This document shows positions 9,776-54,981 of a stretch of DNA of 64,000 nucleotides, one piece after another. The notes beneath the pieces are model-generated. The model was not told where the DNA came from. It was given only the letters and a program-made list of their open reading frames with translations, and did no database searches. The DNA is from Escherichia coli O157 typing phage 14, in the sequence record KP869112. The stretch is one strand, 5' to 3'. The translations under genes were made by a program, and so were the position numbers. Position 1 is the first letter of the stretch; every line of letters begins with the position of its first letter.

Positions 9776-9852
9776 TGGTCTCCACGGAGTGATTCGAACA
9801 CTCGACCTCCTGATCCCAAATCAGGCGCTCTACCAAGCTGAGCTACGCGGAG
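9776..9852 (-). tRNA. tRNA-Pro (anticodon UGG)
   Basis: Hand-folded cloverleaf: 7-bp acceptor stem, T-loop TTCGAAT, anticodon loop UUUGGGA, encoded CCA. Confidence 0.75.
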
Positions 9853-9863
9853 TATTTATTATT

Positions 9864-9938
9864 TGGTGGCCCTGGGTGGAATTGAACCACCGTCTGGCGA
9901 TTATGAGTCGCTTGCTTGAACCTTCCAGCTACAGGGCC
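9864..9938 (-). tRNA. tRNA with CAU anticodon (Met or Ile2)
   Basis: Acceptor GGCCCTG/CAGGGCC, T-arm GGTGG-TTCAATT-CCACC, anticodon arm GCGACUCAUAAUCGC, encoded CCA. The anticodon arm resembles the E. coli ileX type as I recall it, so Ile2 is possible. Confidence 0.7.
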
Positions 9939-9939
9939 A

Positions 9940-10015
9940 TGGTGCTGATGGCAGGACTTGAACCTGCAACCTATTGATTACAAATCAATTGCACTACCAA
10001 TTGTGCTACATCAGC
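9940..10015 (-). tRNA. tRNA-Thr (anticodon UGU)
   Basis: Acceptor GCTGATG/CATCAGC, D-stem GCAC/GTGC, anticodon stem ATTGA/TCAAT with loop UUUGUAA, T-loop TTCAAGT, CCA. Confidence 0.75.
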
Positions 10016-10022
10016 AAAAAGG

Positions 10023-10119
10023 TGCTAGGTGATGGAATCGAACCACCTATGTATTCAACGACTACCTCGTCTATTTTCAGGATTAAAAATCCTCGCCCTT
10101 GCCAAAGGGCTTACCTAGC
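10023..10119 (-). tRNA. atypical tRNA-like gene (Lys-like UUU anticodon loop, 29-nt variable region)
   Basis: Perfect 7-bp acceptor GCTAGGT/ACCTAGC, D-arm GCCC-TTTGGCAA-GGGC, T-arm GGTGG-TTCGATT-CCATC; anticodon arm GAGGA-UUUUUAA-UCCUG (G-G mismatch at 27-43). About 29 nt sit between anticodon and T stems, including an ACGA/TCGT hairpin. No complete encoded CCA. Confidence 0.5.
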
Positions 10120-10216
10120 TCAGTATGTTGACCATGTTGCTAGTCGGCGATGACGACTGTAACATTTGATAATCCGGTTCTGCTTCCGGCTTTCGCTTAA
10201 TTACAAGGTCAACAAT

Positions 10217-10308
10217 ATGGCCGAGGGTAATGGAATCGAACCATCATCAAGTCATCCTCAACGGGACGGTTTTCAAGACCGCTTGAGCACCATTGCTCCC
10301 TACCCTCA
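10217..10308 (-). tRNA. tRNA-Ser (anticodon UGA)
   Basis: Class II tRNA, 92 nt: acceptor TGAGGGT/ACCCTCG, anticodon stem GCGGT/ACCGT with loop CUUGAAA, long variable arm, T-loop TTCGATT, CCA. Confidence 0.7.
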
Positions 10309-10422
10309 TTTATAAACAATACTGATAATGACACTGATTTTCGAGCAGTTAGTGACTAGTATAAACGACGATAAATATCAATGCCATTATCTGTATGATT
10401 TATGCATTTAAAACTATAAATT

Positions 10423-10509
10423 TGGTGGGGAGTGGTGGAGTCGAACCACCCGAGTCGCAATGACAATAGATTTACAGTCTACACCGCTACCTCTACGGGA
10501 TAACTCCCC
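10423..10509 (-). tRNA. tRNA-Tyr (anticodon GUA)
   Basis: Acceptor GGGGAGT/ACTCCCC, anticodon stem GTAGA/TCTAT with loop CUGUAAA, long variable arm (class II, bacterial Tyr type), T-arm GGTGG-TTCGACT-CCACC, CCA. Confidence 0.7.
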
Positions 10510-10513
10510 AATT

Positions 10514-10588
10514 TGGCACCCCGTACTGGACTCGAACCAGTGTCAACGGCTTAGAAGGCCGCTGCTTTATCCACTAAGCTAACAGGGC
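10514..10588 (-). tRNA. tRNA-Arg (anticodon UCU)
   Basis: Acceptor GCCCTGT/ACGGGGT (two G.U pairs), D-stem GCTT/AAGC, anticodon stem GCGGC/GCCGT with loop CUUCUAA, T-arm ACTGG-TTCGAGT-CCAGT, CCA. Confidence 0.7.
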
Positions 10589-41554: not shown

Positions 41555-41949
41555 AGATTGAGATCACTAAAGAAGGTAAGAAAGTGTCTGGAGACTATGC
41601 AACAGTAATTCGAGATTTAATGTTTGAAACCACCAAGTTCGGCACATCTAAAGTTGGTCAAACTGTTAGTGTGCAAGGCAATATCACCACAGGGGAGAAG
41701 ATAATCATTGTAATCAAAGGGCAGGATCCTGTGGAAGGAACAGTGGGCCGAGGAGGATACCTGTGCATTTCTGAAGAGCCACGTATGCTGGTGGCTGACC
41801 ACACTACAGGTGGGAAACGTGTGTGCGAGGCGAATGAGGTAATGATTATTCAACCTGTTGATCCAGATGATCCAGCAACTTGGGTGGTAGGAAATGAAAT
41901 CTTCTCCTTAGAAGAGTTATCCTTCCCAGCCCCACGCTCTGTTCAGTAA
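41551..41949 (+). CDS. hypothetical protein
   Basis: 132-aa ORF; no motif recognised. Confidence 0.4.
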   Translation: MKIEITKEGKKVSGDYATVIRDLMFETTKFGTSKVGQTVSVQGNITTGEKIIIVIKGQDPVEGTVGRGGYLCISEEPRMLVADHTTGGKRVCEANEVMIIQPVDPDDPATWVVGNEIFSLEELSFPAPRSVQ

Positions 41950-41988
41950 TAATTTATCTTACCATGGACGGTAGAAGCAGGAGGTAGC

Positions 41989-42222
41989 ATGAAAGTTAAA
42001 TTTCTTACAGATTTAGGGTACCCTTCCTTGGTTGACTGCATTGGTAAAATTGTGGAAGCAAAACGGCTATCTGCAAACGATAATGTTGTCATGGTTAAGG
42101 GAAAAGATTTATTAGCTGCAGGTGCAGAGTCTGGCAGGATCTCTCCTGACTATACATATTACTTATCTTTAAGTAATCTACCAGAACGAGGCGGCAAAGG
42201 CCTTGAAGTTGTGGAGGAGTGA
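41989..42222 (+). CDS. small acidic protein, paralog family member
   Basis: MKVKFL..., VVMVKGKDLLAAGAE, C-terminal GLEVVEE; shares these with 45388, 45605, 47477 and 47745. Confidence 0.5.
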   Translation: MKVKFLTDLGYPSLVDCIGKIVEAKRLSANDNVVMVKGKDLLAAGAESGRISPDYTYYLSLSNLPERGGKGLEVVEE

Positions 42223-42764
42223 CAGGTATGCTTCTGATTAACTGGGAAGACCTCTATGGGGACAAAGACCCTGTTGCGTTTGTTGATCGTAGATGGAGAT
42301 ACACTGAAGAACAACTGGCTGCAAAAAATTTAACTGCGAAACGCAGAAAGATCATCCAGTGCAAGTACAAATACGCACAATTTGCTGCAAAAGTGTCTCC
42401 ACAAATCGAGAGTTTTGTACTTAAATTGTATGACGAATACCTCAAGTTCAAATTGGATTTTGTACAGGTGTACCGTGCACAGGTACGCCCAGATACCAAC
42501 ATATGTAGATGGAAGGTTGTTTGTGACGGTAAAGATTTGCCGCTCAGCTTGACAATTGAGTGGCGTTATGGGTATCATGAGTGTGGTCTGTATGATATTT
42601 GGGATGTCATTGTAGATCCTGCTAAGTACCTGAACACAGAGGAGCTGGAATATATCAATAAGGTTATTCTCGATATGTTTTTCAGATACACCCGTGAAAA
42701 CTCTGAGAAAGAACGGGATGATTTTCTTGACACCATCAGCAACCATCTGCAGTATACAATTTAA
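42219..42764 (+). CDS. hypothetical protein
   Basis: 181-aa ORF; no motif recognised. Confidence 0.4.
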   Translation: MTGMLLINWEDLYGDKDPVAFVDRRWRYTEEQLAAKNLTAKRRKIIQCKYKYAQFAAKVSPQIESFVLKLYDEYLKFKLDFVQVYRAQVRPDTNICRWKVVCDGKDLPLSLTIEWRYGYHECGLYDIWDVIVDPAKYLNTEELEYINKVILDMFFRYTRENSEKERDDFLDTISNHLQYTI

Positions 42765-42782
42765 CCTACAAAGGGAGGGCTA

Positions 42783-43019
42783 ATGAGTATAAATGTTGTG
42801 CTAATAGGCTACCTGGTAATAGCCGTTATAACAGCGGTATTCTTGACAGGTATATGCATCGTGTCTAGACGAAAGGTGAAGTTTGATGATTTTATCACCA
42901 TCATCACTGCTGCACCTTTTTGGCCTATTGTTATCTTCATCGTAATAATGTGCCTAGTTGATTACTACAAGAATATTCGTAAGGAGAAAAAGGAGAGTAG
43001 GGATGGAGACCGCACCTAA
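42783..43019 (+). CDS. small membrane protein
   Basis: Two hydrophobic segments (LIGYLVIAVITAVFL, FWPIVIFIVIMCL). Confidence 0.4.
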   Translation: MSINVVLIGYLVIAVITAVFLTGICIVSRRKVKFDDFITIITAAPFWPIVIFIVIMCLVDYYKNIRKEKKESRDGDRT

Positions 43020-43132
43020 AGCTGTTTATACTGTTCTTAAAGAGATTGCGTTCTACGCAGATCTTAGCCAGGCACCTTTATGGGAAAAGAGCATGTATTT
43101 AAAATGGTGCGTTAATTTAGGGAGACCTTCCA

Positions 43133-43621
43133 GTGTTTCAAGCCATGTTTATTGAGATGCTATCTGGGGTATTGTTACTGGTAGCCATCTTAGGTGGTGC
43201 AGTTCTGATGTATAACTATCTTGAAAAAGGAGAAATTTTAACAAAATCTGGAAAGATAACTTTGATACCTCTTGATAGTAAAGGTAAAGACCCGTCACGA
43301 CTTGTTATAGATGATTACGTTACAGGTGTGACGTTCGAGGTCTCTGTGGAGAGGTTAATACGCAGAGCTGGCGGCCCTTATGACCGAAGAGAGTATGTTT
43401 TCGATTCCGTTACAGAGATGGGGGAGCATCCGTCTTTAATGTTCAGGATGGTAATCAGGGATATGAGGTCATCTATAGATAGGATCGTAAAGGACATTAA
43501 GGAACCTTTTAGGGTAAAAGTTAAGAAGTTTTTTGATTCTAAGATTAACATACTTGCTGTTGTGCTAGGCGTAATTCAACTTCTGTTAATTTTGCACTAT
43601 TTTGAACTGTTGTTTAAGTAG
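43133..43621 (+). CDS. membrane protein
   Basis: Hydrophobic helices at N- and C-termini. Confidence 0.4.
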   Translation: MFQAMFIEMLSGVLLLVAILGGAVLMYNYLEKGEILTKSGKITLIPLDSKGKDPSRLVIDDYVTGVTFEVSVERLIRRAGGPYDRREYVFDSVTEMGEHPSLMFRMVIRDMRSSIDRIVKDIKEPFRVKVKKFFDSKINILAVVLGVIQLLLILHYFELLFK

Positions 43622-43681
43622 TGTGCAACAAGGCACAAAGGATGTGCCATAATTAAACAAATTAAGAAAGAGGTAGAGAGA

Positions 43682-44029
43682 ATGTCAAAGATTAAATCGA
43701 TATTAATGTGGGTAGCTGTTGTGGCTTTTGTAGGATACTGGACTTGGGAAACTGAATTAAAAGATATCGGATATACCAGTCTTGAGAGCAAGGCATGCAT
43801 TGGCATAACCGATGCATTCAGGCAAAATGCTATGGATCACGAATGTGTCGATGCAGATATAGATGAGAAACTATCTAAGGACAAGGATTTTTACCATGGT
43901 CATGCCTTGCTTGATAGTGGTGACACTGTAGAATTCTGGTCGTGGTTCCGTGAAGATGGAACAATAAAGACAGCAGTAAAGATTTCCAACAAAGAGTTAA
44001 TGCTGTTGCAGCAGAAGGAGGCTCAATGA
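43682..44029 (+). CDS. hypothetical protein with N-terminal transmembrane segment
   Basis: ILMWVAVVAFVGYWTW. Confidence 0.4.
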   Translation: MSKIKSILMWVAVVAFVGYWTWETELKDIGYTSLESKACIGITDAFRQNAMDHECVDADIDEKLSKDKDFYHGHALLDSGDTVEFWSWFREDGTIKTAVKISNKELMLLQQKEAQ

Positions 44030-44313
44030 TCTGGATATCTTATACTGATGGCACCATGCTGTATACTGCAGGTACCAGATATGAAGTTCAGGAGAACGAT
44101 AAAAAATTTATCGTAAGAACATTTGACAAGGACGACAACCTTTTGCTAGAATTGACTTACAAGGTTGGAGAGGTATCCAATATCCAATTGGATTGTGGTC
44201 ATAAAGATAATCCACTCAAAAAACCTGGAATAGGCAAGGCTTCAGAAGAACGTTTGTCTCGTATTGCAGAAAGCGTTTCTCCCCAAAAATCCAAGAAGAG
44301 GATTAGAAAATGA
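44026..44313 (+). CDS. hypothetical protein
   Basis: 95-aa ORF, start overlaps upstream stop. Confidence 0.35.
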   Translation: MIWISYTDGTMLYTAGTRYEVQENDKKFIVRTFDKDDNLLLELTYKVGEVSNIQLDCGHKDNPLKKPGIGKASEERLSRIAESVSPQKSKKRIRK

Positions 44314-44510
44314 GTGACAAAATTCTTAAATTTAATACCTACTATGAGAATGATTTGAACGATCTGTATTATATAGTGCGTAGCGAAAACCCAAATGTAG
44401 TTCTGTTTTGCCGAGAACCTTTCAAAAAAGAGGAGATTGAATCTACCATGAATGTGGATCAGATTTCACACCTGCTGCTCCTTGGATCATTAAAAGAGGC
44501 AGTATTCTAA
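44310..44510 (+). CDS. hypothetical protein
   Basis: 66-aa ORF, start overlaps upstream stop. Confidence 0.3.
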   Translation: MSDKILKFNTYYENDLNDLYYIVRSENPNVVLFCREPFKKEEIESTMNVDQISHLLLLGSLKEAVF

Positions 44511-44529
44511 ACCAGGGTGGAGGGTTTTT

Positions 44530-44715
44530 ATGAAGCATTATTGTCTGTCTGGTAGATTGGGTGCAGATTGTGATTGGGTTTTCTTAAAACTTGTCAGCAT
44601 TCGAGAGTCCATCTCAGAAGAAGAGCAAGAAAGTGAGCTGATGTCATGGATCAACCATTACGGTAACACTTTTCGGCATGTTAAGGTAGAAGAGTTGCCA
44701 AGCGAGGCTGATTGA
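44530..44715 (+). CDS. hypothetical protein
   Basis: 61-aa ORF. Confidence 0.3.
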   Translation: MKHYCLSGRLGADCDWVFLKLVSIRESISEEEQESELMSWINHYGNTFRHVKVEELPSEAD

Positions 44716-44810
44716 CTATGATTGCATCAATATTAACGTTTATGGGTGGCGTGGCATTCGGATTCATTGTTTGCCTGTTTATAGTGATTATGTCTATGCG
44801 AGGCTGAATT

Positions 44811-45107
44811 ATGAAACTTTTTGAGTGGTTTAAAAAGTTTAAATATAAAGCTGTAGCCATCGTGCCGTGGTCCATTCAGTGGGTTGATGAAGGTGGTCTA
44901 CCAATACCTGGTGACAAAGATACTGGGTACTGGATTATGATGGAGAACGGGTTTGGAAAGCGAAAGTATACGTGCACAAACTCTACTCGATCTGCGCTTA
45001 ATAGAGTGCCTGGTTACAAACTTATGGTTGTGTGGAAAATGTCAGGCGTGCCTCCAGCTAATGCTCAATTTCTTACTGACAATCCGACCACGGTAGAGGG
45101 AGATTGA
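44811..45107 (+). CDS. hypothetical protein
   Basis: 98-aa ORF. Confidence 0.35.
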   Translation: MKLFEWFKKFKYKAVAIVPWSIQWVDEGGLPIPGDKDTGYWIMMENGFGKRKYTCTNSTRSALNRVPGYKLMVVWKMSGVPPANAQFLTDNPTTVEGD

Positions 45108-45391
45108 TAATGAAAAAGATTAACAGTGGTGAAGTTGAGTTTAAACTTGTCGGGAAAGGCACTTACTGGGAAGTTCGTCAAAAGGTATATTTGTTCGGTC
45201 TTATTCCCTATTGGTCTAAATTCTACTGGGGAGCTAACGAGTGGGGAAGATACGCCACCAAATCAATGGCACTTATTGGTATAGCAGAGTACATTGCAGC
45301 CAGAGATAGGGTTGGAGACACTTATTACTATACTGCGGACGATATTCGTAACAGTGTTTACGTCCCACAACCACCTGATGGAGACCGTTGA
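45104..45391 (+). CDS. hypothetical protein
   Basis: 95-aa ORF. Confidence 0.35.
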   Translation: MIMKKINSGEVEFKLVGKGTYWEVRQKVYLFGLIPYWSKFYWGANEWGRYATKSMALIGIAEYIAARDRVGDTYYYTADDIRNSVYVPQPPDGDR

Positions 45392-45615
45392 TGAAAGTTA
45401 AAGTTTTAGATTCAAGCTTCTATATTGGTCAGGAGCCTTTAGTAGGAAAAGTGTTTACTGCTGTCCCTAACGAAGATTACCCTGACCTTTTAAAAATAAA
45501 AGGAGCAGATCTTATTGCCGCTGGTGCATCTCAGGAATGCTTTGACAGTCAGTGGACCTACAACTTTGCCCTAGGTGAGGATGTAGAGGTAGTGGAGGAC
45601 GATCATGAAGGTTAA
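45388..45615 (+). CDS. small acidic protein, paralog family member
   Basis: MMKVKVLDSSFYIGQ..., LLKIKGADLIAAGAS, EDVEVVEDD. Confidence 0.5.
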   Translation: MMKVKVLDSSFYIGQEPLVGKVFTAVPNEDYPDLLKIKGADLIAAGASQECFDSQWTYNFALGEDVEVVEDDHEG

Positions 45616-45859
45616 AATTCTTGATTCTAACGTCTACTTGGGACAATCCTTCCTGAATGGAAAGGTCGTTCCTGCGGTATACTTTGAAGGGTTGCCGTGG
45701 GATGATCCTGTGCGGCAACATCACAGTTATGTAGGCCACAACGTGGTGTTTATCTTGGGATCAGACCTGATCACCGCTGGTGCACCTGAATATTATTTCG
45801 GGGAAGAGTCCTACTATGCCTTTGGGGTAGGGTCAGATGCAGATATTGTAGAGCTGTGA
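45605..45859 (+). CDS. small acidic protein, paralog family member
   Basis: MKVKILDSNVYLGQ..., VVFILGSDLITAGAP, DADIVEL. Confidence 0.5.
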   Translation: MKVKILDSNVYLGQSFLNGKVVPAVYFEGLPWDDPVRQHHSYVGHNVVFILGSDLITAGAPEYYFGEESYYAFGVGSDADIVEL

Positions 45860-45871
45860 TGGGTAACCGTT

Positions 45872-46270
45872 GTGAAAAATAAACTGTTTAAAGTTACAAT
45901 GAAAATTCGCGGGGCTTGGAGCGTAAAGCAAGGGCGTATTCCAGAATTTGAGAAAGACTTCTACGTAGTCTCCACCTCGGAGGAGGCTGCATGCTGGCAG
46001 GCTGGCTATGCCTATGCAAGAACCTGGTACGAAGGATACCAGACTGGGGGCTATGACGGAGAAATTATCAGCAAGGGTGTAGAAGAAATTAATGTGTTGA
46101 CAAGTGAAAAAGTTTTTGTTATAGTGCATCCAGATTCCAGAGTGAAGCATTACTGGAATGCCAGAACAAAAACTTGGACACCGTTTGCAGATTCTGCTAC
46201 GCCACTTTTAAACCAGAAAGCTCTTGACTCTGCCCCAAGTTATGGGGTTGTTGAAGAAAAGCTAAACTGA
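45872..46270 (+). CDS. hypothetical protein (second paralog pair, with 48077)
   Basis: Shares HYWNARTKTWTP / YYWDVLNNEWTP and overall layout with 48077-48472. Confidence 0.4.
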   Translation: MKNKLFKVTMKIRGAWSVKQGRIPEFEKDFYVVSTSEEAACWQAGYAYARTWYEGYQTGGYDGEIISKGVEEINVLTSEKVFVIVHPDSRVKHYWNARTKTWTPFADSATPLLNQKALDSAPSYGVVEEKLN

Positions 46271-46287
46271 AACAGTGAGGTGTCACC

Positions 46288-46578
46288 ATGATGGATTTAA
46301 TTCTAAATATTGATAACGCAGGAGAGTTTAAAGACGAGGGTGTAACAAGCATGGACAAACCCTGCTCTGCTAAGGTTGACTCAAAATGGACCTACAAGTT
46401 TGACGGAGAGATCTTCGCAAATGATGAGAAGGTTGTAGATGCTGCAGCCATTTTAAACGCTCTAGGGTACGACCCTGTGAATTCTTTGATCAAGGATCCT
46501 GTTGAGTTTGCAGAGTATGTTCGAAAAATGGCAGATCTTGCTGTGGATATTTTAAAAACTATCGACAACAAGCTGTAA
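46288..46578 (+). CDS. hypothetical protein
   Basis: 96-aa ORF. Confidence 0.35.
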   Translation: MMDLILNIDNAGEFKDEGVTSMDKPCSAKVDSKWTYKFDGEIFANDEKVVDAAAILNALGYDPVNSLIKDPVEFAEYVRKMADLAVDILKTIDNKL

Positions 46579-46584
46579 AAACTG

Positions 46585-46613
46585 TTGACACAACGCTTCA
46601 GATTTAGTATCAT
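46585..46613 (+). promoter_or_regulatory. sigma70-like promoter
   Basis: TTGACA, 17-nt spacer, TATCAT, upstream of the hpf-like gene. Confidence 0.4.
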
Positions 46614-46660
46614 TGTTTTCAAAGATGGTTTGGTTCCCTCTTCTTTAAAAGGAACACGTT

Positions 46661-46978
46661 ATGCAAATTGAAATCACTGGCAACGTAGAAATCACTGAAG
46701 GTATGGTGTCTTTCATTTCCCACAAAATGTCTAAGCTGGAGCGTTTGCACCCCTCTGCCAACTATGCACGTGTGAGTGTAAAAGTTGAAAATGATCACCA
46801 GGAAGTTATGGCGCTCATTTTTGACAATTCTGGAAAAGAAGTTATTGCCAAGGCTAAAGGTAGTGATGCTTACGAGGCAACTGACCGTATGGTAGATGTT
46901 GCAGCACGTCAGCTGGCTAAATGCGGTGGAAAGAAAGGTAAGGGGAAAGGCAAAGTAAAGATTGACTTTGGAGAATGA
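46661..46978 (+). CDS. hpf: ribosome hibernation promoting factor homolog (HPF/RaiA/YfiA family)
   Basis: MQIEITGNVEITEGM...SKLERL...VSVKVEN...GKEVIAKAKGSDAYEATDRMVDVAARQLAK aligns along its length with E. coli HPF as recalled; Lys/Gly-rich tail. Confidence 0.8.
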   Translation: MQIEITGNVEITEGMVSFISHKMSKLERLHPSANYARVSVKVENDHQEVMALIFDNSGKEVIAKAKGSDAYEATDRMVDVAARQLAKCGGKKGKGKGKVKIDFGE

Positions 46979-47115
46979 GGTGCTACAATGGGCGTGATTA
47001 AGAAACTAGTCCCAAATGTAGAGATTGCATGCTTTGAAATTATGTTTGCAATCGCAGTTGTAGTTAATGTGTTAGGTTACGGCTATTAATATCAAATAAT
47101 TGAGGAGACCTCTAA

Positions 47116-47385
47116 ATGAAAATTAAATTATTCAAAACTGAGCTGGCAGACAAAAACTGTGGACTGGTTGAAGGCATGATTGTCGAAGCACAACCAGTTG
47201 ACTATATGAAGGTGGTTCGTGATGCCCTGGGTGAAGGTTTTGATCTGATGGAGCCAGCTCTGCGAGAAGATGTTATCGAGATGGCTAAAAAGCACACACC
47301 TGAAGGAATGGTGGTGTTTGTTGCACCAGGTAACGGAGAAGAGTTGATTGTAACTCCGGATGTGTATGAGATTGTAGAGGAATAA
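47116..47385 (+). CDS. small acidic protein, probable distant paralog family member
   Basis: MKIKLF..., MVVFVAPGNGEEL, C-terminal VYEIVEE. Confidence 0.4.
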   Translation: MKIKLFKTELADKNCGLVEGMIVEAQPVDYMKVVRDALGEGFDLMEPALREDVIEMAKKHTPEGMVVFVAPGNGEELIVTPDVYEIVEE

Positions 47386-47476
47386 TCCTGCTTGGATTAG
47401 CATACTTCCTCGACAAGGAAGGTTTGTAATTATTTGTGGGAAAGGAATCCCAATCTCTTACCATAGGTGATACTAT

Positions 47477-47740
47477 ATGATTGTTTATTTTAAAACTTCA
47501 GGTGGATACCCTGATTCTCAAAGCTTGATCGGAAAAACGTGCACAGCATACTCACCTCTTGATGAGGAGGTAGGCGATATTCTACGAAATATGTATCGGA
47601 TTGATCCCCAAGAAGCCTTTGATCAAAACCTTGTATTTGTCAAGGGCTCAGACATGAAGTCTTTGGGAGCATTCCCTGAAGCAGATGATGATGCCGTTTA
47701 TTCGTTCATGACCCCTTTTGAAGCTATGGTTGTCGGGTGA
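47477..47740 (+). CDS. small acidic protein, paralog family member
   Basis: LVFVKGSDMKSLGAFPE. Confidence 0.45.
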   Translation: MIVYFKTSGGYPDSQSLIGKTCTAYSPLDEEVGDILRNMYRIDPQEAFDQNLVFVKGSDMKSLGAFPEADDDAVYSFMTPFEAMVVG

Positions 47741-47744
47741 TAAT

Positions 47745-48077
47745 ATGAAAGTACGCTTTATTGGTGAAACAATTCCTGTGCATCTCCGGTCGCCTGAGGA
47801 TTCTGCAGATCTTGCATCTCAGAAAGCGAGAGGCTATGATAAGAAAGTAACCTCAACCGGTGTAGTGCTTGAGGCTACTAGTCTACCTGACCCTGCTGCA
47901 TTCTTTAATCATTATGGGTACTATTTCAGCAATCTTATGAATATCGGTGAGCTTGTGTTTATTAGTGGTGGAGAGATTGTTAGCAAGCTTGGCGGCGATC
48001 CGGATGTCTTTCATGAAACCTGTCCTTTTGCATTTGTGGTAGGTTCAGATGTGGAAGTTATTGAGGAGGTGCGGTAA
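47745..48077 (+). CDS. small acidic protein, paralog family member
   Basis: Start at internal ATG (MKVRFIG); LVFISGGEIVSKLGG, VVGSDVEVIEEV. Confidence 0.45.
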   Translation: MKVRFIGETIPVHLRSPEDSADLASQKARGYDKKVTSTGVVLEATSLPDPAAFFNHYGYYFSNLMNIGELVFISGGEIVSKLGGDPDVFHETCPFAFVVGSDVEVIEEVR

Positions 48078-48472
48078 TGGTAAGCCTATACCGTGTTGAG
48101 TATAGCTCAGATACTGTATACAACGTAAGAAGCAAAGATCGCAGCAACAGAGTGCAAGAAATGTATGTTCTTGCCGACAGTCCGTTATCTGCAGCGTTCA
48201 AGGCAGGGGCTCTTGCATCTCGTTGGAAATTTGAAGGCGGATCTTTCTATGAAGAAACCCTTGAAGATTCTGTTGTTATTTCTTCTGTAGAGGTTTCAGA
48301 TGACTACGAAGGGAAAAAGTTCGTAATGCGGCACCCACACAGCAACATTGCGTACTACTGGGATGTTCTGAACAACGAGTGGACCCCAGATCTTCAGAAG
48401 GCCACTGTGCTAACACCGTTTTTGGCAGATAAGTTCCCACCAGAAGGTAATTTATCCGCACTGTTTCAGTAA
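48077..48472 (+). CDS. hypothetical protein (paralog of 45872)
   Basis: YYWDVLNNEWTP region shared with 45872-46270. Confidence 0.4.
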   Translation: MVSLYRVEYSSDTVYNVRSKDRSNRVQEMYVLADSPLSAAFKAGALASRWKFEGGSFYEETLEDSVVISSVEVSDDYEGKKFVMRHPHSNIAYYWDVLNNEWTPDLQKATVLTPFLADKFPPEGNLSALFQ

Positions 48473-48548
48473 TTTTCTTGCACACAGGTGTTGACAACAC
48501 CAACCCTGTGTGAAATAATACCTTCATCTTAACAAGACGGGAGACTGA

Positions 48549-48809
48549 TTGATGAAGATTAAACTGAAAAACCTTGAAATGGCAGAGATTCAGGATGGTG
48601 TTGATTTCCGCTCTAAAGATGGTGACATCTTAGAGGTAAATCTTCCAACCTACGAGCTGATTAAAGGTTTTGGCAACGTTCAGGAAGAGGATATTCCAGA
48701 AATTCTTATGATGTTGATTCTTGACGGAACTGTGTTTGTAGGTGAAGGTGAGAACGCTATTGCAATCCCAGGCCATTTTTATGAAGTAGTTGACGAAGAG
48801 GTGCTGTAA
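48549..48809 (+). CDS. small acidic protein, probable distant paralog family member
   Basis: MMKIKLKNLE..., TVFVGEGENA, YEVVDEEVL. Confidence 0.4.
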   Translation: MMKIKLKNLEMAEIQDGVDFRSKDGDILEVNLPTYELIKGFGNVQEEDIPEILMMLILDGTVFVGEGENAIAIPGHFYEVVDEEVL

Positions 48810-49160
48810 ATGAAAGTAGAAATTACTGGTTTTGATGTTAGTGTGGTTCCGGAAGATATTTTAGCTAACTTACCGGAAGGTTTTGGTAACGGTGTTGTGG
48901 TGGATGCTGTTCCTCCTACCAAAGACATTCTGCTGCAGTATGGTGTAGCAGAGGAAGATGTCGATAAAGTTCTTACAATGATGGCAATCGATCGTGTTGT
49001 CGTTGTTAAAGGTCTCGATAATTTTGAGAGTGATCCTCTGATTATTCGCGGAGATGACTACAAAATCATCGATAATGAAGGCCAAGAGTTCTATGAGCCT
49101 TGTGCAGAAGATATTCTTAACTTATTACTGGAAGCAGGCACCGAAGAGGAGGACGAATAA
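48810..49160 (+). CDS. small acidic protein
   Basis: MKVEITGF..., VVVVKGLDNF, acidic tail. Confidence 0.4.
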   Translation: MKVEITGFDVSVVPEDILANLPEGFGNGVVVDAVPPTKDILLQYGVAEEDVDKVLTMMAIDRVVVVKGLDNFESDPLIIRGDDYKIIDNEGQEFYEPCAEDILNLLLEAGTEEEDE

Positions 49161-49489
49161 TGAAGATTGACCAGTTACTGAAGGCTCGTGCAGAAAAAGC
49201 GTACACCATTAAGCTGACCAACCTGGTTCCTACTTGTCATCCGGATGTAGGTTGGCCCGAAGGTCTGGTAGAGGGAACTGTAACAGCTGCATACCTTCCT
49301 AACATCAAGTACCTTATGGAGATCTTAGAGATGGATGAGGAAACTGCAGAACAGTTCCAGTTAGATATGAAACAGAGTGGGACTCTGGTTATTCACGGGT
49401 GGTATAATACTAAAGATGCAGAAGACCCTCTGGTAACTTCTAATCTGGCATATGAAATCTTAGGGCCTTTGAACCTGGAGGAAGACTAA
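49160..49489 (+). CDS. small acidic protein
   Basis: 109-aa ORF, C-terminal AYEILGP. Confidence 0.35.
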   Translation: MKIDQLLKARAEKAYTIKLTNLVPTCHPDVGWPEGLVEGTVTAAYLPNIKYLMEILEMDEETAEQFQLDMKQSGTLVIHGWYNTKDAEDPLVTSNLAYEILGPLNLEED

Positions 49490-49776
49490 TGAAAGATCTG
49501 GTTAAGATTAAGATTAAAGATACCAATGGAGAACTCAGCCATTTTGGAATTAATGATGGTGACGAGCTGATCGCACACCTGCCTACTAAGGAGGTTGTAA
49601 GCAAAGCAGTTGCAGGAGAAGAAGCTGCAATGCAGGCTGCAGGTGTGGATGAAAACTATGTAGCTATGTGCATGTGCCGAGATCAGGTTGTTCTGTATAA
49701 AGCGTATCGACCAAACGGAGCCACGGAGTGGCTTGTATTCCGACCCGAAGGATATGAAATCTTAGAGGCACTATGA
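49489..49776 (+). CDS. small acidic protein
   Basis: 95-aa ORF, C-terminal GYEILEAL. Confidence 0.35.
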   Translation: MKDLVKIKIKDTNGELSHFGINDGDELIAHLPTKEVVSKAVAGEEAAMQAAGVDENYVAMCMCRDQVVLYKAYRPNGATEWLVFRPEGYEILEAL

Positions 49777-49865
49777 TAAATCTTGCCAAGGTTGCAACGG
49801 CACTGCTAATTATTTGCTGGTCAGTAACCTTAACACTGTGTCTTGTATTTCAGTGAGGTGCTTGT

Positions 49866-51259: not shown

Positions 51260-51567
51260 GGTGGATTATGTCTACAAAGGCGGCTAAATACTCCTACATA
51301 CCATCAACCTCTGCAGAGGTAGACTTTAGTTTCGATGTGTTTCCACTGTTTGAGGTGGTTCTGGCATACCCAACAATACTATCTACTCCTGAGTCACTTG
51401 TGCCTGTTAAGTTGCAGAACGCTATGCATTCTATGCACTACAACAATAAATGTAGGCACAGATGGTGTCAGGACGAGGAAAAAGATCTGGATAGTTTGAG
51501 AGATTTTGACAATCACCTTTTGACACCTTTCAGCTACTCCAACCTTGATAAGCCCTCATGGGTATAG
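51256..51567 (+). CDS. hypothetical protein
   Basis: 103-aa ORF. Confidence 0.35.
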   Translation: MRWIMSTKAAKYSYIPSTSAEVDFSFDVFPLFEVVLAYPTILSTPESLVPVKLQNAMHSMHYNNKCRHRWCQDEEKDLDSLRDFDNHLLTPFSYSNLDKPSWV

Positions 51568-52477: not shown

Positions 52478-54020
52478 CACACAATTAGCTACCCGGCTAA
52501 AGTGCTGGGAGCACCTATAACACATCTTTCAACTAAATTTCCTACCACCACAATCACTTACCTCCCACACATGACTGTTTGCTTGTTTAGTGAGCAGTCA
52601 TGCCTTGACATTCTTGCCTATCCTGATAAAATTAAGTTCTTCTCTTTTCTTTTACCGAGTAATTCGGGTTTTCTGTTCTCTTCGGTTTGAAGGGGTATGG
52701 AGATACACCTGAGTGAACAGGGTGAACAACCGAACCATTGGCTATGGCATTAGCATGGCGAAGCGGACGGGTGACGAAAGAGGGGCCGGAGGACACCAGT
52801 CACTGCCATATGATATATAGGTGATAACCTGAAGAGTCTGAATAAGTGTTTAAGTACCAGTCAGAGGAAAAGGTGAATGGTAGCCGAAGGGGGAGGGGGG
52901 TTTCTTGTATCTTTAATTTGTATATTATGTATACACTTGTAAACCAACACCATCTGAATTTGCTTACCACACAAAGCGGATAGAGACAAATATTACCTAT
53001 TAAACTTGAATTATTTATAGAAAATACCACAACACCACTTAAGTCTTTGATTTTACACATAAATCCTACAGATATTCACCCTCCATATTTAACATACTTG
53101 TAACATATCTATACCCAACCTGTCTGATCAACTCACCCAACTACATCCTCCATATTTCCCCTGTCTGTACTACCCCTGCCCAGCCGGGAGTCCCGTCATA
53201 TCTGGCTTTCCAGCAAATATCACACCCACAAATATCATTGCCTGAAGAGGGTTTCATCCCATAATACATGCCTTACCTGAAGAGCGCTTCATACACCACG
53301 TAAATTTTTTAATTGACCTGCAATTTTCCCGTCATGACCCCCTGCCCCGCCAGAGAGGTTGACTTTTCCCACACAGACCTGAAGAGCCAGCCAGAAATAT
53401 CTGAACAGGTCCAGTTATACCACGATTTTGACCTGACCGACAGGAGTGCCTCCCTGTCAGGAGCCGGTAGCGACTGGAGTGCTGCCAGGCGGACGAAATG
53501 GGAATACTTCTCATTCTTATAATAATTCTCAAATATCGAGGCAGTGAGGCAAATTAATAGGTGAGGCCGTTCACACAGTGGCACAACATTTGCAACCTAT
53601 CTTGTGGGGTGAATGAGAATACCTATCATTGTGAGAATAGTTATCATTACGGGCAATTTAACATAATACCCATTATGCGCACCACTGGCGATACATACAG
53701 GGGTTGATAACATGAGTTACTGTTTACGCACATAACAATTATATTTCTTACTATTTGTGTGGGATATAGTTAGCAGCCGATAGATTAGATATTGACCTGT
53801 AGACTTCCAACCGTCTAGACGTCTAAACGCCCACACAACAAGGCTTATACATACATCACTGAATGTAAACAGGACCGCAAAAATGCTACCATACAAGCTT
53901 GTAAATTTTTCATGCAGCACTTGACAAAGAGGAGGAAAACTTGTCTGACACACTGGGCACAACATAACATACTGCAGCACAATATGACACAATAACGACT
54001 GTTATTATTTCATGTTTCAC

Positions 54021-54080
54021 TGTTCACGTATAGATTGTTCCCGCATAGACTGTTTACGCCTGGATAGTTCACGCATAGAT
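54021..54080. repeat. four tandem ~15-bp direct repeats
   Basis: tgttcacgtatagat, tgttcccgcatagac, tgtttacgcctggatag, ttcacgcatagat in tandem. Confidence 0.7.
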
Positions 54081-54086
54081 GATAAG

Positions 54087-54317
54087 CCATGCCATTCGTT
54101 TGCATGACAATAATTAACTTGTTTACAATAGATGACATAATATAAAAGCAGGGCAACTATTAGAAGATCATAGTTGCCTTGCTTGTTATGTCATGATTAA
54201 CTAAATACAAGGCAACTATGATCTGATTAATAGATTGCAGACAAACTATCACGGGGGTGATTGTTACTGCTTTTATATTATGTCGCGACTCCGTCGCGCC
54301 ATGCCATTCGTTTGCAT
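54087..54317. repeat. nested repeat structure: 19-bp direct repeats flanking a 17-bp inverted-repeat pair
   Basis: ccatgccattcgtttgcat at 54087-54105 and 54299-54317; acataatataaaagcag at 54135-54151 with exact reverse complement at 54268-54284; internal palindrome ggcaactat...atagttgcc (54151-54177). Confidence 0.8.
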
Positions 54318-54981
54318 AGTTGCCTTATTGTTACAGATAAAATAATTGTATTGTTAATTATTTCTTATCTTTCTATTAGTCATCTAATGATTTCAGTTAG
54401 TATAGTAACGTACAGTAAACATTAGACGACTAAAGATTTCTCTGCTTATAATAACCTAACGTGACAATTCCGGACTGTTTACGAAAAATGTTGACACCTG
54501 AGCTGATTTATGTTATGCAGTTTACACGAATAATTATTTTATGCAGGTATTGACTATTCTGTTATTCTATGGTTGGAATAAATACTTAGCAGGCTATAGA
54601 ATGGTGAGCGTACGTAAATTCTAAGATCTGGCGGCTATAGTTATGCCCGATTTTTCACGTAGAAAACGCTTTTATGAGTGTGTAAGTGTATGACTTATAA
54701 AGATTTTTAGTTGTTGACAAGATACTGAAGATGTGCATCAGGTTAAATTTTGTGCAATAGCGGCATTACGTGCAATTTTGGAAGGAAAAACGTGTAAAAA
54801 ATGGCGCTGCTACCACACAATGAAAGATTATGCAATAGCTATTTTACATGTATGTTTGTACAGTGGTGGTAATTGATGGCTTGTCGATTATTCCACTTGC
54901 CAGGCTGGGCCGTTTGTGGTAGGGGAAATACAGACAAAAAGAAAGGGGCCTTTTAAAGCCCCTGATAGTTTAGTTAATAAA

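Follow-up and report, generated by a model that had tools for sequence, protein, structure and literature searches.

Among phage proteins with a described anti-defence role, a functional precedent for the genes presented here is Nip of the Bacillus phage Φ3T, which is made early, has predicted SH3-like domains, binds and inhibits the TIR NADase SpbK, and is encoded in a cluster with another counter-defence gene (PMC11984713). Further background comes from the HIDEN-SEQ preprint, a transposon-insertion sequencing study of phage Bas54 (= MaxBurger), in which bas54_0140 was validated and found to be needed to overcome DS-28, a predicted defence system of the clinical isolate CFE311 (bioRxiv 10.1101/2025.11.20.689424). 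Our subject is an array of small genes at positions 41,989 to 49,776 of a 64,000-nucleotide stretch of Escherichia coli O157 typing phage 14 (sequence record KP869112; the whole stretch is called the window below). The orthologue of bas54_0140 is found in the window at 51268-51567, 1.5 kb downstream of the array. The twelve genes under study, referred to by their start positions, make up three families, namely A (five members), B (five members) and the pair C.

All three families are real and not the outcome of chance. The open reading frames (ORFs) at 41989, 45388, 45605, 47477 and 47745 had been noticed in the initial annotation for a shared start, core and acidic C-terminus, and both the aligned motifs and the profile searches described below bear this out. 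The motifs are MKVK(F/V/I)L at the start, GK-V--A in the middle, G-x-D/E-L/I---(A/L)G(A/G), and a terminal E-V-V-E-E strand. By an all-versus-all BLASTP with SEG masking, 41989, 45388 and 45605 were linked to each other at expectation values (E) of 6e-12 to 8e-8, and 47477 and 47745 joined this group at 4e-4 to 8e-3. Family B was connected through 48549 and 48810 (2e-4) and through 48810 and 49160 (6e-3). The pairing of 45872 with 48077, likewise proposed initially, was confirmed with 28% identity over 119 amino acids (aa) at E 2.4e-8, and both proteins belong to phrog_7379. These E-values are optimistic, since the database consisted of 19 sequences.

A fairer comparison was made by leaving members out, i.e. 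by building a hidden Markov model (HMM) from four members of a family and comparing it with every window ORF of 40 aa or more (470 in total). In ten out of ten cases, the best match outside the training set was the omitted member, with E-values of 1.6e-13 to 2.5e-6 in family A and 7e-6 to 4e-4 in family B, the next ORF always lying above 0.1. It had been stated at the outset that the claim would fail if significance were lost once the acidic tails were masked. With the first 6 and the last 12 residues removed, four of the five A members were still clearly found (8e-8 to 5e-4) and all five B members still ranked first, although weakly (3e-6 to 0.13), but 47745 was lost (E 2.3). As members are still recovered by the masked searches, the acidic tail is not what the families depend on, and a low-complexity artefact was rejected on the basis of these searches and the SEG-masked BLAST. 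It is scarcely credible that the similarities are due to chance or low complexity, or that some of the ORFs are not genes. The proteins are admittedly short, and the similarity of the B cores is weak with the termini masked, but every left-out member ranks first among some 470 ORFs, the ratios of non-synonymous to synonymous substitution (dN/dS) are as low as 0.03-0.17, the structural models are confident and orthologues are annotated in more than 100 genomes. The tests that were run already refute this explanation.

Families A and B are treated as two, because profile-profile alignment is not significant and neither HMM finds the other family. The probability given by hhalign was 2.6% with five sequences on each side, 6.3% with alignments of 30 and 37 sequences, and 1-3% with a broader A alignment (P ~0.015), the aligned stretch being colinear from MK(V/I)K through to the terminal E(V/I)(V/I)E. 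The A HMM scored B members at E 0.6 or above, and the B HMM scored A members at E 8 or above. A single family of ten was rejected on the grounds of these three hhalign runs and the cross-family searches, and the array of about ten paralogues described initially is in fact one of five, five and two genes. The five B genes, then taken for weaker members of the same family, do constitute a family according to the leave-one-out searches, but one with no significant sequence similarity to A. No further members were detected among the 470 window ORFs by broad A and B HMMs.

What the two families can be shown to share is a predicted fold only, and not membership of one sequence family. AlphaFold2 models were made with the family alignments for 45391 of family A (predicted local distance difference test, pLDDT, 89.6; predicted template modelling score, pTM, 0.77) and for 48552 of family B (pLDDT 90.4, pTM 0.78), and both of these proteins are predicted to be SH3-like small β-barrels. 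The models contain five antiparallel strands closed into a barrel, in the order a, long loop, b, loop, c, hairpin, d, short turn and e. A short helix follows strand 3 in the A model, while two helices are inserted between strands 2 and 3 in the B model, at the same site where the A members 45605, 47477 and 47745 carry insertions of 10-25 residues. Insertions that distinguish the paralogues sit between strands 1-2 and 2-3. Hence the common fold for which structure prediction was meant to test is seen in one A and one B model, with the qualification that the latter includes the helical insert. The feature first described as an acidic hydrophobic C-terminus corresponds in the models to the last strand of the barrel and not to a disordered tail. 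Nine of the ten A and B proteins have an isoelectric point (pI) of 4.05-4.8, and net charges range from -1.5 to -22.5 across the ten; 41989 is barely acidic (-1.5), the other nine lying between -6 and -22.5. When the A model was compared with viral predicted structures by Foldseek, the CM1 orthologue of 47477 (A0A5B9MW73) came second with a TM score of 0.81, together with many small uncharacterised proteins of T4-like phages, Certrevirus and other enterobacterial phages. The 50 Foldseek matches listed for the A model included none that could be recognised as a B orthologue.

Purifying selection acts on each paralogue within the genus Vequintavirus. Nei-Gojobori dN/dS, calculated at gene level for ten genomes (the window, rV5, FV3, MaxBurger, YP-6, ECP26, JEP1, EPFV3, typing phage 4 and nomo), lay at 0.03-0.17 throughout the twelve genes of families A, B and C, as compared to 0.01-0.29 for neighboring genes. 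Every member was found in every one of the ten, save for one orthologue of 49489 that fell below the coverage filter, probably that of rV5, which is annotated as two ORFs. Considering the low dN/dS together with the retention of the genes in the genomes compared, the paralogues are old, stable and individually constrained. The idea of a fast-diverging family under diversifying selection does not survive these figures, which lie within or below the range of the neighbors, and such selection was rejected at gene level.

Two observations on individual copies belong here. In the rV5 reference (L001 10852-11122), the 49489 orthologue is annotated as the two overlapping short ORFs gp148 and gp149, the split being attributable either to a frameshift or to a sequencing error in rV5; the gene is intact in the window, in FV3 and in the other genomes whose annotation was inspected. 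Furthermore, copy number changes occasionally. Three independent contigs have, in place of the neighboring genes 45391 and 45605 (window 45391-45859), one hybrid of 70 aa (L027 and L028, 1501-1713), in which the N-terminal half of 45391 passes into the C-terminal half of 45605 at the conserved DLIAAGA motif. Another hybrid (P0028), with a prophage-type N-terminal half and a 45391-type C-terminal half, was seen on a 1.6-kb contig only.

A role at the host interface is indirectly supported by the transposon data for Bas54. The genes of the window were mapped onto bas54_0146-0166 via gene order, and the comparison between E. coli K-12 and the uropathogenic CFE311 was taken from the resampling table of the preprint (Extended Data Table 8, bioRxiv 10.1101/2025.11.20.689424). 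On K-12, ten of the 13 orthologues, counting that of a ribosome hibernation factor gene located in the array, are classified as "Non-essential", three as "Intermediate" and none as essential; the intermediate ones are those of 47116, 47477 and 47745, with 69-73% of their TA sites hit (bioRxiv 10.1101/2025.11.20.689424). On CFE311, insertions in bas54_0150, 0151 and 0152 dropped from a mean of 71-142 reads per site on K-12 to 0. This contiguous A-A-C block, i.e. the orthologues of 47477, 47745 and 48077, thus appears to be needed on CFE311 and not on K-12. The C gene bas54_0157 was partly depleted, the decrease in the B gene bas54_0153 was not significant, and the remaining eight members were unchanged (Table 1). 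Insertions in the ribosome hibernation factor gene and bas54_0154, both upstream on the same presumed transcript, were not depleted, nor were those in the A genes upstream of bas54_0157, which argues against strong polarity from upstream of the block.

Table 1. Genes and promoters of the array in the window, with their rV5 and Bas54 counterparts and the change in Bas54 transposon insertions on CFE311 relative to K-12 (log2 fold change, log2FC). LOO, leave-one-out HMM search.
Feature	Positions	Strand	Length (aa)	rV5	Bas54	Remarks	CFE311 log2FC
Family A member 1	41989..42222	+	77	gp122	bas54_0166	phrog_5009 E 6e-36; LOO E 2.5e-6, rank 1; non-essential on K-12	unchanged
Family A member 2	45391..45615	+	74	gp135	bas54_0159	modelled A member	
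Family A member 3	45605..45859	+	84	gp136	bas54_0158	phrog_5009 E 4e-32; LOO E 1.6e-13; 10-aa insert between strands 2 and 3; 11-nt overlap with preceding gene	
Family C member 1	45872..46270	+	132	gp137	bas54_0157	closes first A-A-C triplet; phrog_7379	-2.14 (adjusted p ~0)
Sigma-70-like promoter	46585..46613	+		P144		11/12 consensus match; intergenic gap; upstream of hibernation factor gene, B 47116 and second A-A-C triplet	
Ribosome hibernation factor (HPF/RaiA) homologue	46661..46978	+				not a family member; Pfam Ribosomal_S30AE E 8.8e-13	
Family B member 1	47116..47385	+	89	gp141	bas54_0153	LOO E 4e-4, rank 1/470	-2.78 (not significant)
Family A member 4	47477..47740	+	87	gp142	bas54_0152	LOO E 9e-7; phrog_5009 E 1.2e-4; 25-aa insert between strands 2 and 3	-7.16 (zero reads, adjusted p ~0)
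Family A member 5	47745..48077	+	110	gp143	bas54_0151	LOO E 2e-6 (full length); most divergent A member; inserts in both long loops	-6.17 (zero reads, adjusted p ~0)
Family C member 2	48077..48472	+	131	gp144	bas54_0150	closes second A-A-C triplet; phrog_7379; start overlaps stop of 47745	-6.77 (zero reads, adjusted p ~0)
Sigma-70-like promoter	48491..48519	+		P150		11/12 match; extended -10 TG; intergenic; upstream of four-gene B operon	
Family B member 2	48552..48809	+	85	gp145	bas54_0149	modelled B member	
Family B member 3	48810..49160	+	116	gp146	bas54_0148	LOO E 8e-6 (3e-6 with termini masked); acidic C-terminal extension, net charge -22.5, pI 4.05	
Family B member 4	49160..49489	+	109	gp147	bas54_0147	LOO E 4e-4, rank 1	
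Family B member 5	49489..49776	+	95		bas54_0146	LOO E 1.3e-5, rank 1	

All ORFs named in the initial annotation exist, and they are tightly packed on the plus strand with several start/stop overlaps. The starts of three genes were moved slightly downstream to the ATG annotated in rV5 (45391, 47745 and 48552, the first and last having been given as 45388 and 48549). An arrangement of two A genes followed by one C gene occurs twice. In rV5, a Vequintavirus and myovirus of E. coli, the region comprises ORF127-ORF154, which are "hypothetical" throughout save for the ribosome hibernation factor homologue, and includes two sigma-70-type promoters, P144 and P150; a consensus scan of the window recovered the same two sites. 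The hibernation factor gene in the middle of the array, B 47116 and the second A-A-C triplet appear to share a transcript; the Bas54 orthologue of the hibernation factor gene is non-essential on K-12 as well as on CFE311 in the published transposon data. A gene for a ClpP-like protease lies a few kb upstream in the same gene block. Bas54 (MaxBurger, L006) is without ~1.9 kb of small genes found at ~43130-45100 in the window, among them one annotated in rV5 as "virion structural protein", and nevertheless keeps all A, B and C genes.

The array belongs to the presumably early accessory gene block of an rV5-like E. coli myovirus (Vequintavirus). At the nucleotide level, the 7.9-kb region shares 98.6% identity with Escherichia phage FFH2 and 96.9% with rV5. 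A search of GenBank phages gave 121 records with similar DNA, nearly all of them from the genus Vequintavirus, and no match outside this genus was obtained among the GenBank phage records even by sensitive blastn. Eighteen records with accessions MG0656xx and titled "Campylobacter phage" are 94-97% identical to window 41900-49800; these are probably mislabelled or contaminant genomes.

The protein families differ in their reach. By word-indexed search, A and B members turned up on rV5-like contigs alone, apart from one A member of 75 aa with 45% identity to 41989, which resides between the Q antiterminator and holin genes of lambdoid E. coli prophages and is present in 13 out of the 5,426 complete genomes of E. 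coli. When the A profile was run with HMMER against the full set of 1.84 billion representatives, it matched 43 clusters (50% identity) at E-values up to 1e-3, with the consensus MKVKLLNDGGY-GM--V-GKVV-A...I-G-ELI-AGA...F....Y-F--G-E-EVIEE; in some of these proteins, two or three copies are fused in one chain. Members were identified also in a Proteus podophage and in a Krischvirus, and on viral contigs of ~20-66 kb, in one case between RecT/YqaJ/Dcm genes and NinX/integrase, i.e. in a prophage. Single tblastn matches, not inspected individually, were listed for Pantoea, Aeromonas and Klebsiella phage records. Judging from these profile matches, family A is spread over unrelated temperate and virulent phages, and several loci outside Vequintavirus have two or three A genes in tandem. 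Families B and C were found in 118 Vequintavirus records each (48077 with at least 95% amino-acid identity in 118). Neither was detected outside this genus in GenBank phages or the large protein collection at the sensitivity used, and none of 17 other family-A loci contained a B or C relative, so that no linkage between A and C is seen beyond Vequintavirus.

As the initial annotation had stated, no described family can be named for these proteins. Searches of Pfam, NCBIfam and PDB sequences returned no meaningful relative for any A or B protein, and for none of the ten was there a Pfam match to an SH3 or KOW profile at E-values up to 1, nor any NCBIfam match to them. The PHROGs database offers families of "unknown function" only. 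The three A members 41989, 45391 and 45605 belong to phrog_5009 (6e-36 to 4e-32), 47477 matches it only at 1.2e-4 and 47745 has no hit; the two C members share their family, and each remaining member has its own. The families involved are phrog_5009 (with 13367, 7345 and 8603), phrog_7379 and the single-lineage 13920, 13661, 11868, 12359, 12155, 12457 and 12794, while distant A relatives match phrog_5009, 13367 and 7345. Our literature searches found no paper mentioning phrog_5009, no functional lead for these genes in work on rV5 paralogues and Vequintavirus early genes, and nothing on them in an mBio paper on defences that target Vequintavirinae.

Regarding function, we give an even chance to the proposal that the A and B proteins are early, stoichiometric binders of host or defence proteins. 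Each would be made early from the host-type (sigma-70-like) promoters and would bind a host protein of its own in stoichiometric amounts, most likely so as to inhibit it; for some members at least, that protein would be a component of an anti-phage defence. Which protein is bound would depend on the two long loops on either side of the usual SH3 binding face, the sites at which the paralogues have their insertions, and by duplication followed by specialisation one phage could deal with several targets. The three products of the second A-A-C triplet may work together. We favor this proposal because of the small, acidic, single-domain folds, the host-type promoters, the dispensability on K-12 and the need for one triplet on CFE311, and furthermore because of the proven anti-defence gene in the same block, the relatives in accessory ("moron" or early-left) positions, the tandem amplification and the loop insertions. 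A role at the host interface had been suggested at first sight, and remains plausible in view of the depletion of the triplet on CFE311, the dispensability on K-12 and the nearby bas54_0140, but not by way of the diversifying selection then invoked.

A number of points weigh against the binder proposal. Early expression is deduced from consensus promoters only, and the low dN/dS is not what would be expected from an ongoing arms race at a binding surface. No binding partner, defence system or biochemical activity has been described for any member. A significant host-specific requirement is seen in two of the five A members and in no B member, and for one isolate only; moreover, polarity within the three-gene block is possible, and the C gene 48077 alone might be the one required. 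Validation by the authors of the preprint was limited to bas54_0063 and bas54_0140, and bas54_0150-0152 are not mentioned in their main text (bioRxiv 10.1101/2025.11.20.689424). In Supplementary file 9, the sheet before "Data S7" (K-12 vs CFE303) carries exactly the CFE311 numbers, leaving one clinical host readable. This "CFE303" sheet also lacks the depletion of bas54_0108 that the preprint text describes for CFE303, and is probably a duplicate of the CFE311 sheet.

Among other explanations, mimicry of DNA was considered, where the negative protein surface would imitate DNA and so block restriction-modification, RecBCD or nucleic-acid-sensing defences in the manner of Ocr, ArdA and T7 gp5.9. 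Strong acidity in nine of the ten proteins, with 48810 reaching -22.5 within 116 aa, would agree with this, as would their small size, probable early expression, dispensability on K-12 and partial host specificity. Known DNA mimics are, on the other hand, elongated helical or β-sheet dimers, as opposed to the compact SH3-like barrel predicted here; 41989 is nearly uncharged by comparison, and much of the acidity resides in the conserved last strand (E-V-V-E-E), where it is structural. We therefore regard DNA mimicry as unlikely. Slightly less likely still is that the proteins modulate translation or transcription during host takeover, as KOW or ribosomal-protein-like barrels docking on the ribosome, RNA polymerase, NusG partners or Rho. 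The KOW-like fold and the ribosome hibernation factor next door would suit such a role, but no KOW or ribosomal-protein profile matched at E-values up to 1, acidic proteins bind RNA poorly, and a general takeover function leaves unexplained why a requirement seen on CFE311 is nearly absent on K-12.

The proteins could also serve the phage itself, e.g. as adaptors for its ClpP-like protease, as chaperones or as small regulators, with the effect on CFE311 being indirect. Such a phage-internal role, which we consider improbable and the least so favored of these three, is compatible with the protease gene upstream, and the strong purifying selection and universal retention within the genus fit a housekeeping-type function. 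None of the genes is essential on K-12, however, and family A is found in phages without such a protease and in moron-type prophage positions; nor would a host-specific requirement be expected from a purely internal function. The binder proposal can also be taken further, although in this form we hold it to be doubtful: family A may be a new and widespread counter-defence family, amplified in tandem so that each copy acts against a different immunity protein, with the A-A-C products of 47477-48472 forming a complex that disables a defence of CFE311, and with B as a helix-decorated branch of the same scaffold.

Two further regions of the window deserve mention. At 52480-54980 there is an ORF-poor stretch of ~2.5 kb, where plus- and minus-strand genes diverge, the GC skew flips sign and the GC content falls to 0.39. 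It includes a repeat cluster (54086-54333) with perfect direct repeats (20 nt, 212 bp apart), inverted repeats (18 and 17 nt) and four to five occurrences of ATAGTTGCCTTG, and it matches an intergenic region of Bas54 that is without transposon insertions (bioRxiv 10.1101/2025.11.20.689424). On account of this lack of insertions, the stretch probably acts in cis as an essential element, for instance an origin of replication. Seven clustered tRNA genes are located at 9776-10588 on the minus strand. For one of these, a 99-nt gene at 10021-10119, ARAGORN reports a four-base anticodon and no amino-acid assignment, and the Rfam tRNA model scores 35.5 bits.

The outcome is a well-defined set of candidates, and not the discovery of a mechanism. 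Pathogenic E. coli are a target of phage therapy and biocontrol work with phages like rV5, whose early genes are for the most part without an assigned function. Twelve "hypothetical" genes are now placed in three families, with a common SH3-like fold predicted for the modelled A and B members and with each copy conserved, and these families are tied to an existing but undiscussed genetic result, namely that the phage needs a block of three genes on a clinical isolate, but not on K-12. This gives a short list of candidate determinants of host range or counter-defence. Should the proposal be true, the anti-defence repertoire would gain a protein-binding scaffold that recurs in temperate and virulent phages unrelated to each other, and it would become easier to predict which clinical strains are open to a therapeutic Vequintavirus.

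Lastly, the array can be set beside the known systems. In the PHROGs database, the ten A and B proteins are split over eight families, and neither the five-member families nor the common predicted fold are visible there. In contrast to the SH3-like small β-barrels of e.g. SH3 domains, the KOW domains of NusG/Spt5 and PsaE, the proteins described here are standalone and not parts of larger ones, and relative to the canonical barrels the A model adds the helix after strand 3 and the B model the two-helix insert. Ocr, ArdA and T7 gp5.9 are likewise small, very acidic, early and accessory, but differ in fold from what is predicted here. The neighboring bas54_0140 resembles the array genes in belonging to the same accessory block, in being dispensable on K-12 and in being depleted on CFE311 in the same data set; it is unrelated to A, B and C by HMM, and the defence system that it targets has been validated by knockout. 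Nip, finally, is a protein of 279 aa from a temperate phage of a Gram-positive host, with two SH3-like domains and an HU-like dimerisation domain, whereas the A and B proteins have a single domain and 74-116 aa. It is therefore to be seen as a functional precedent by analogy, and not as a relative.

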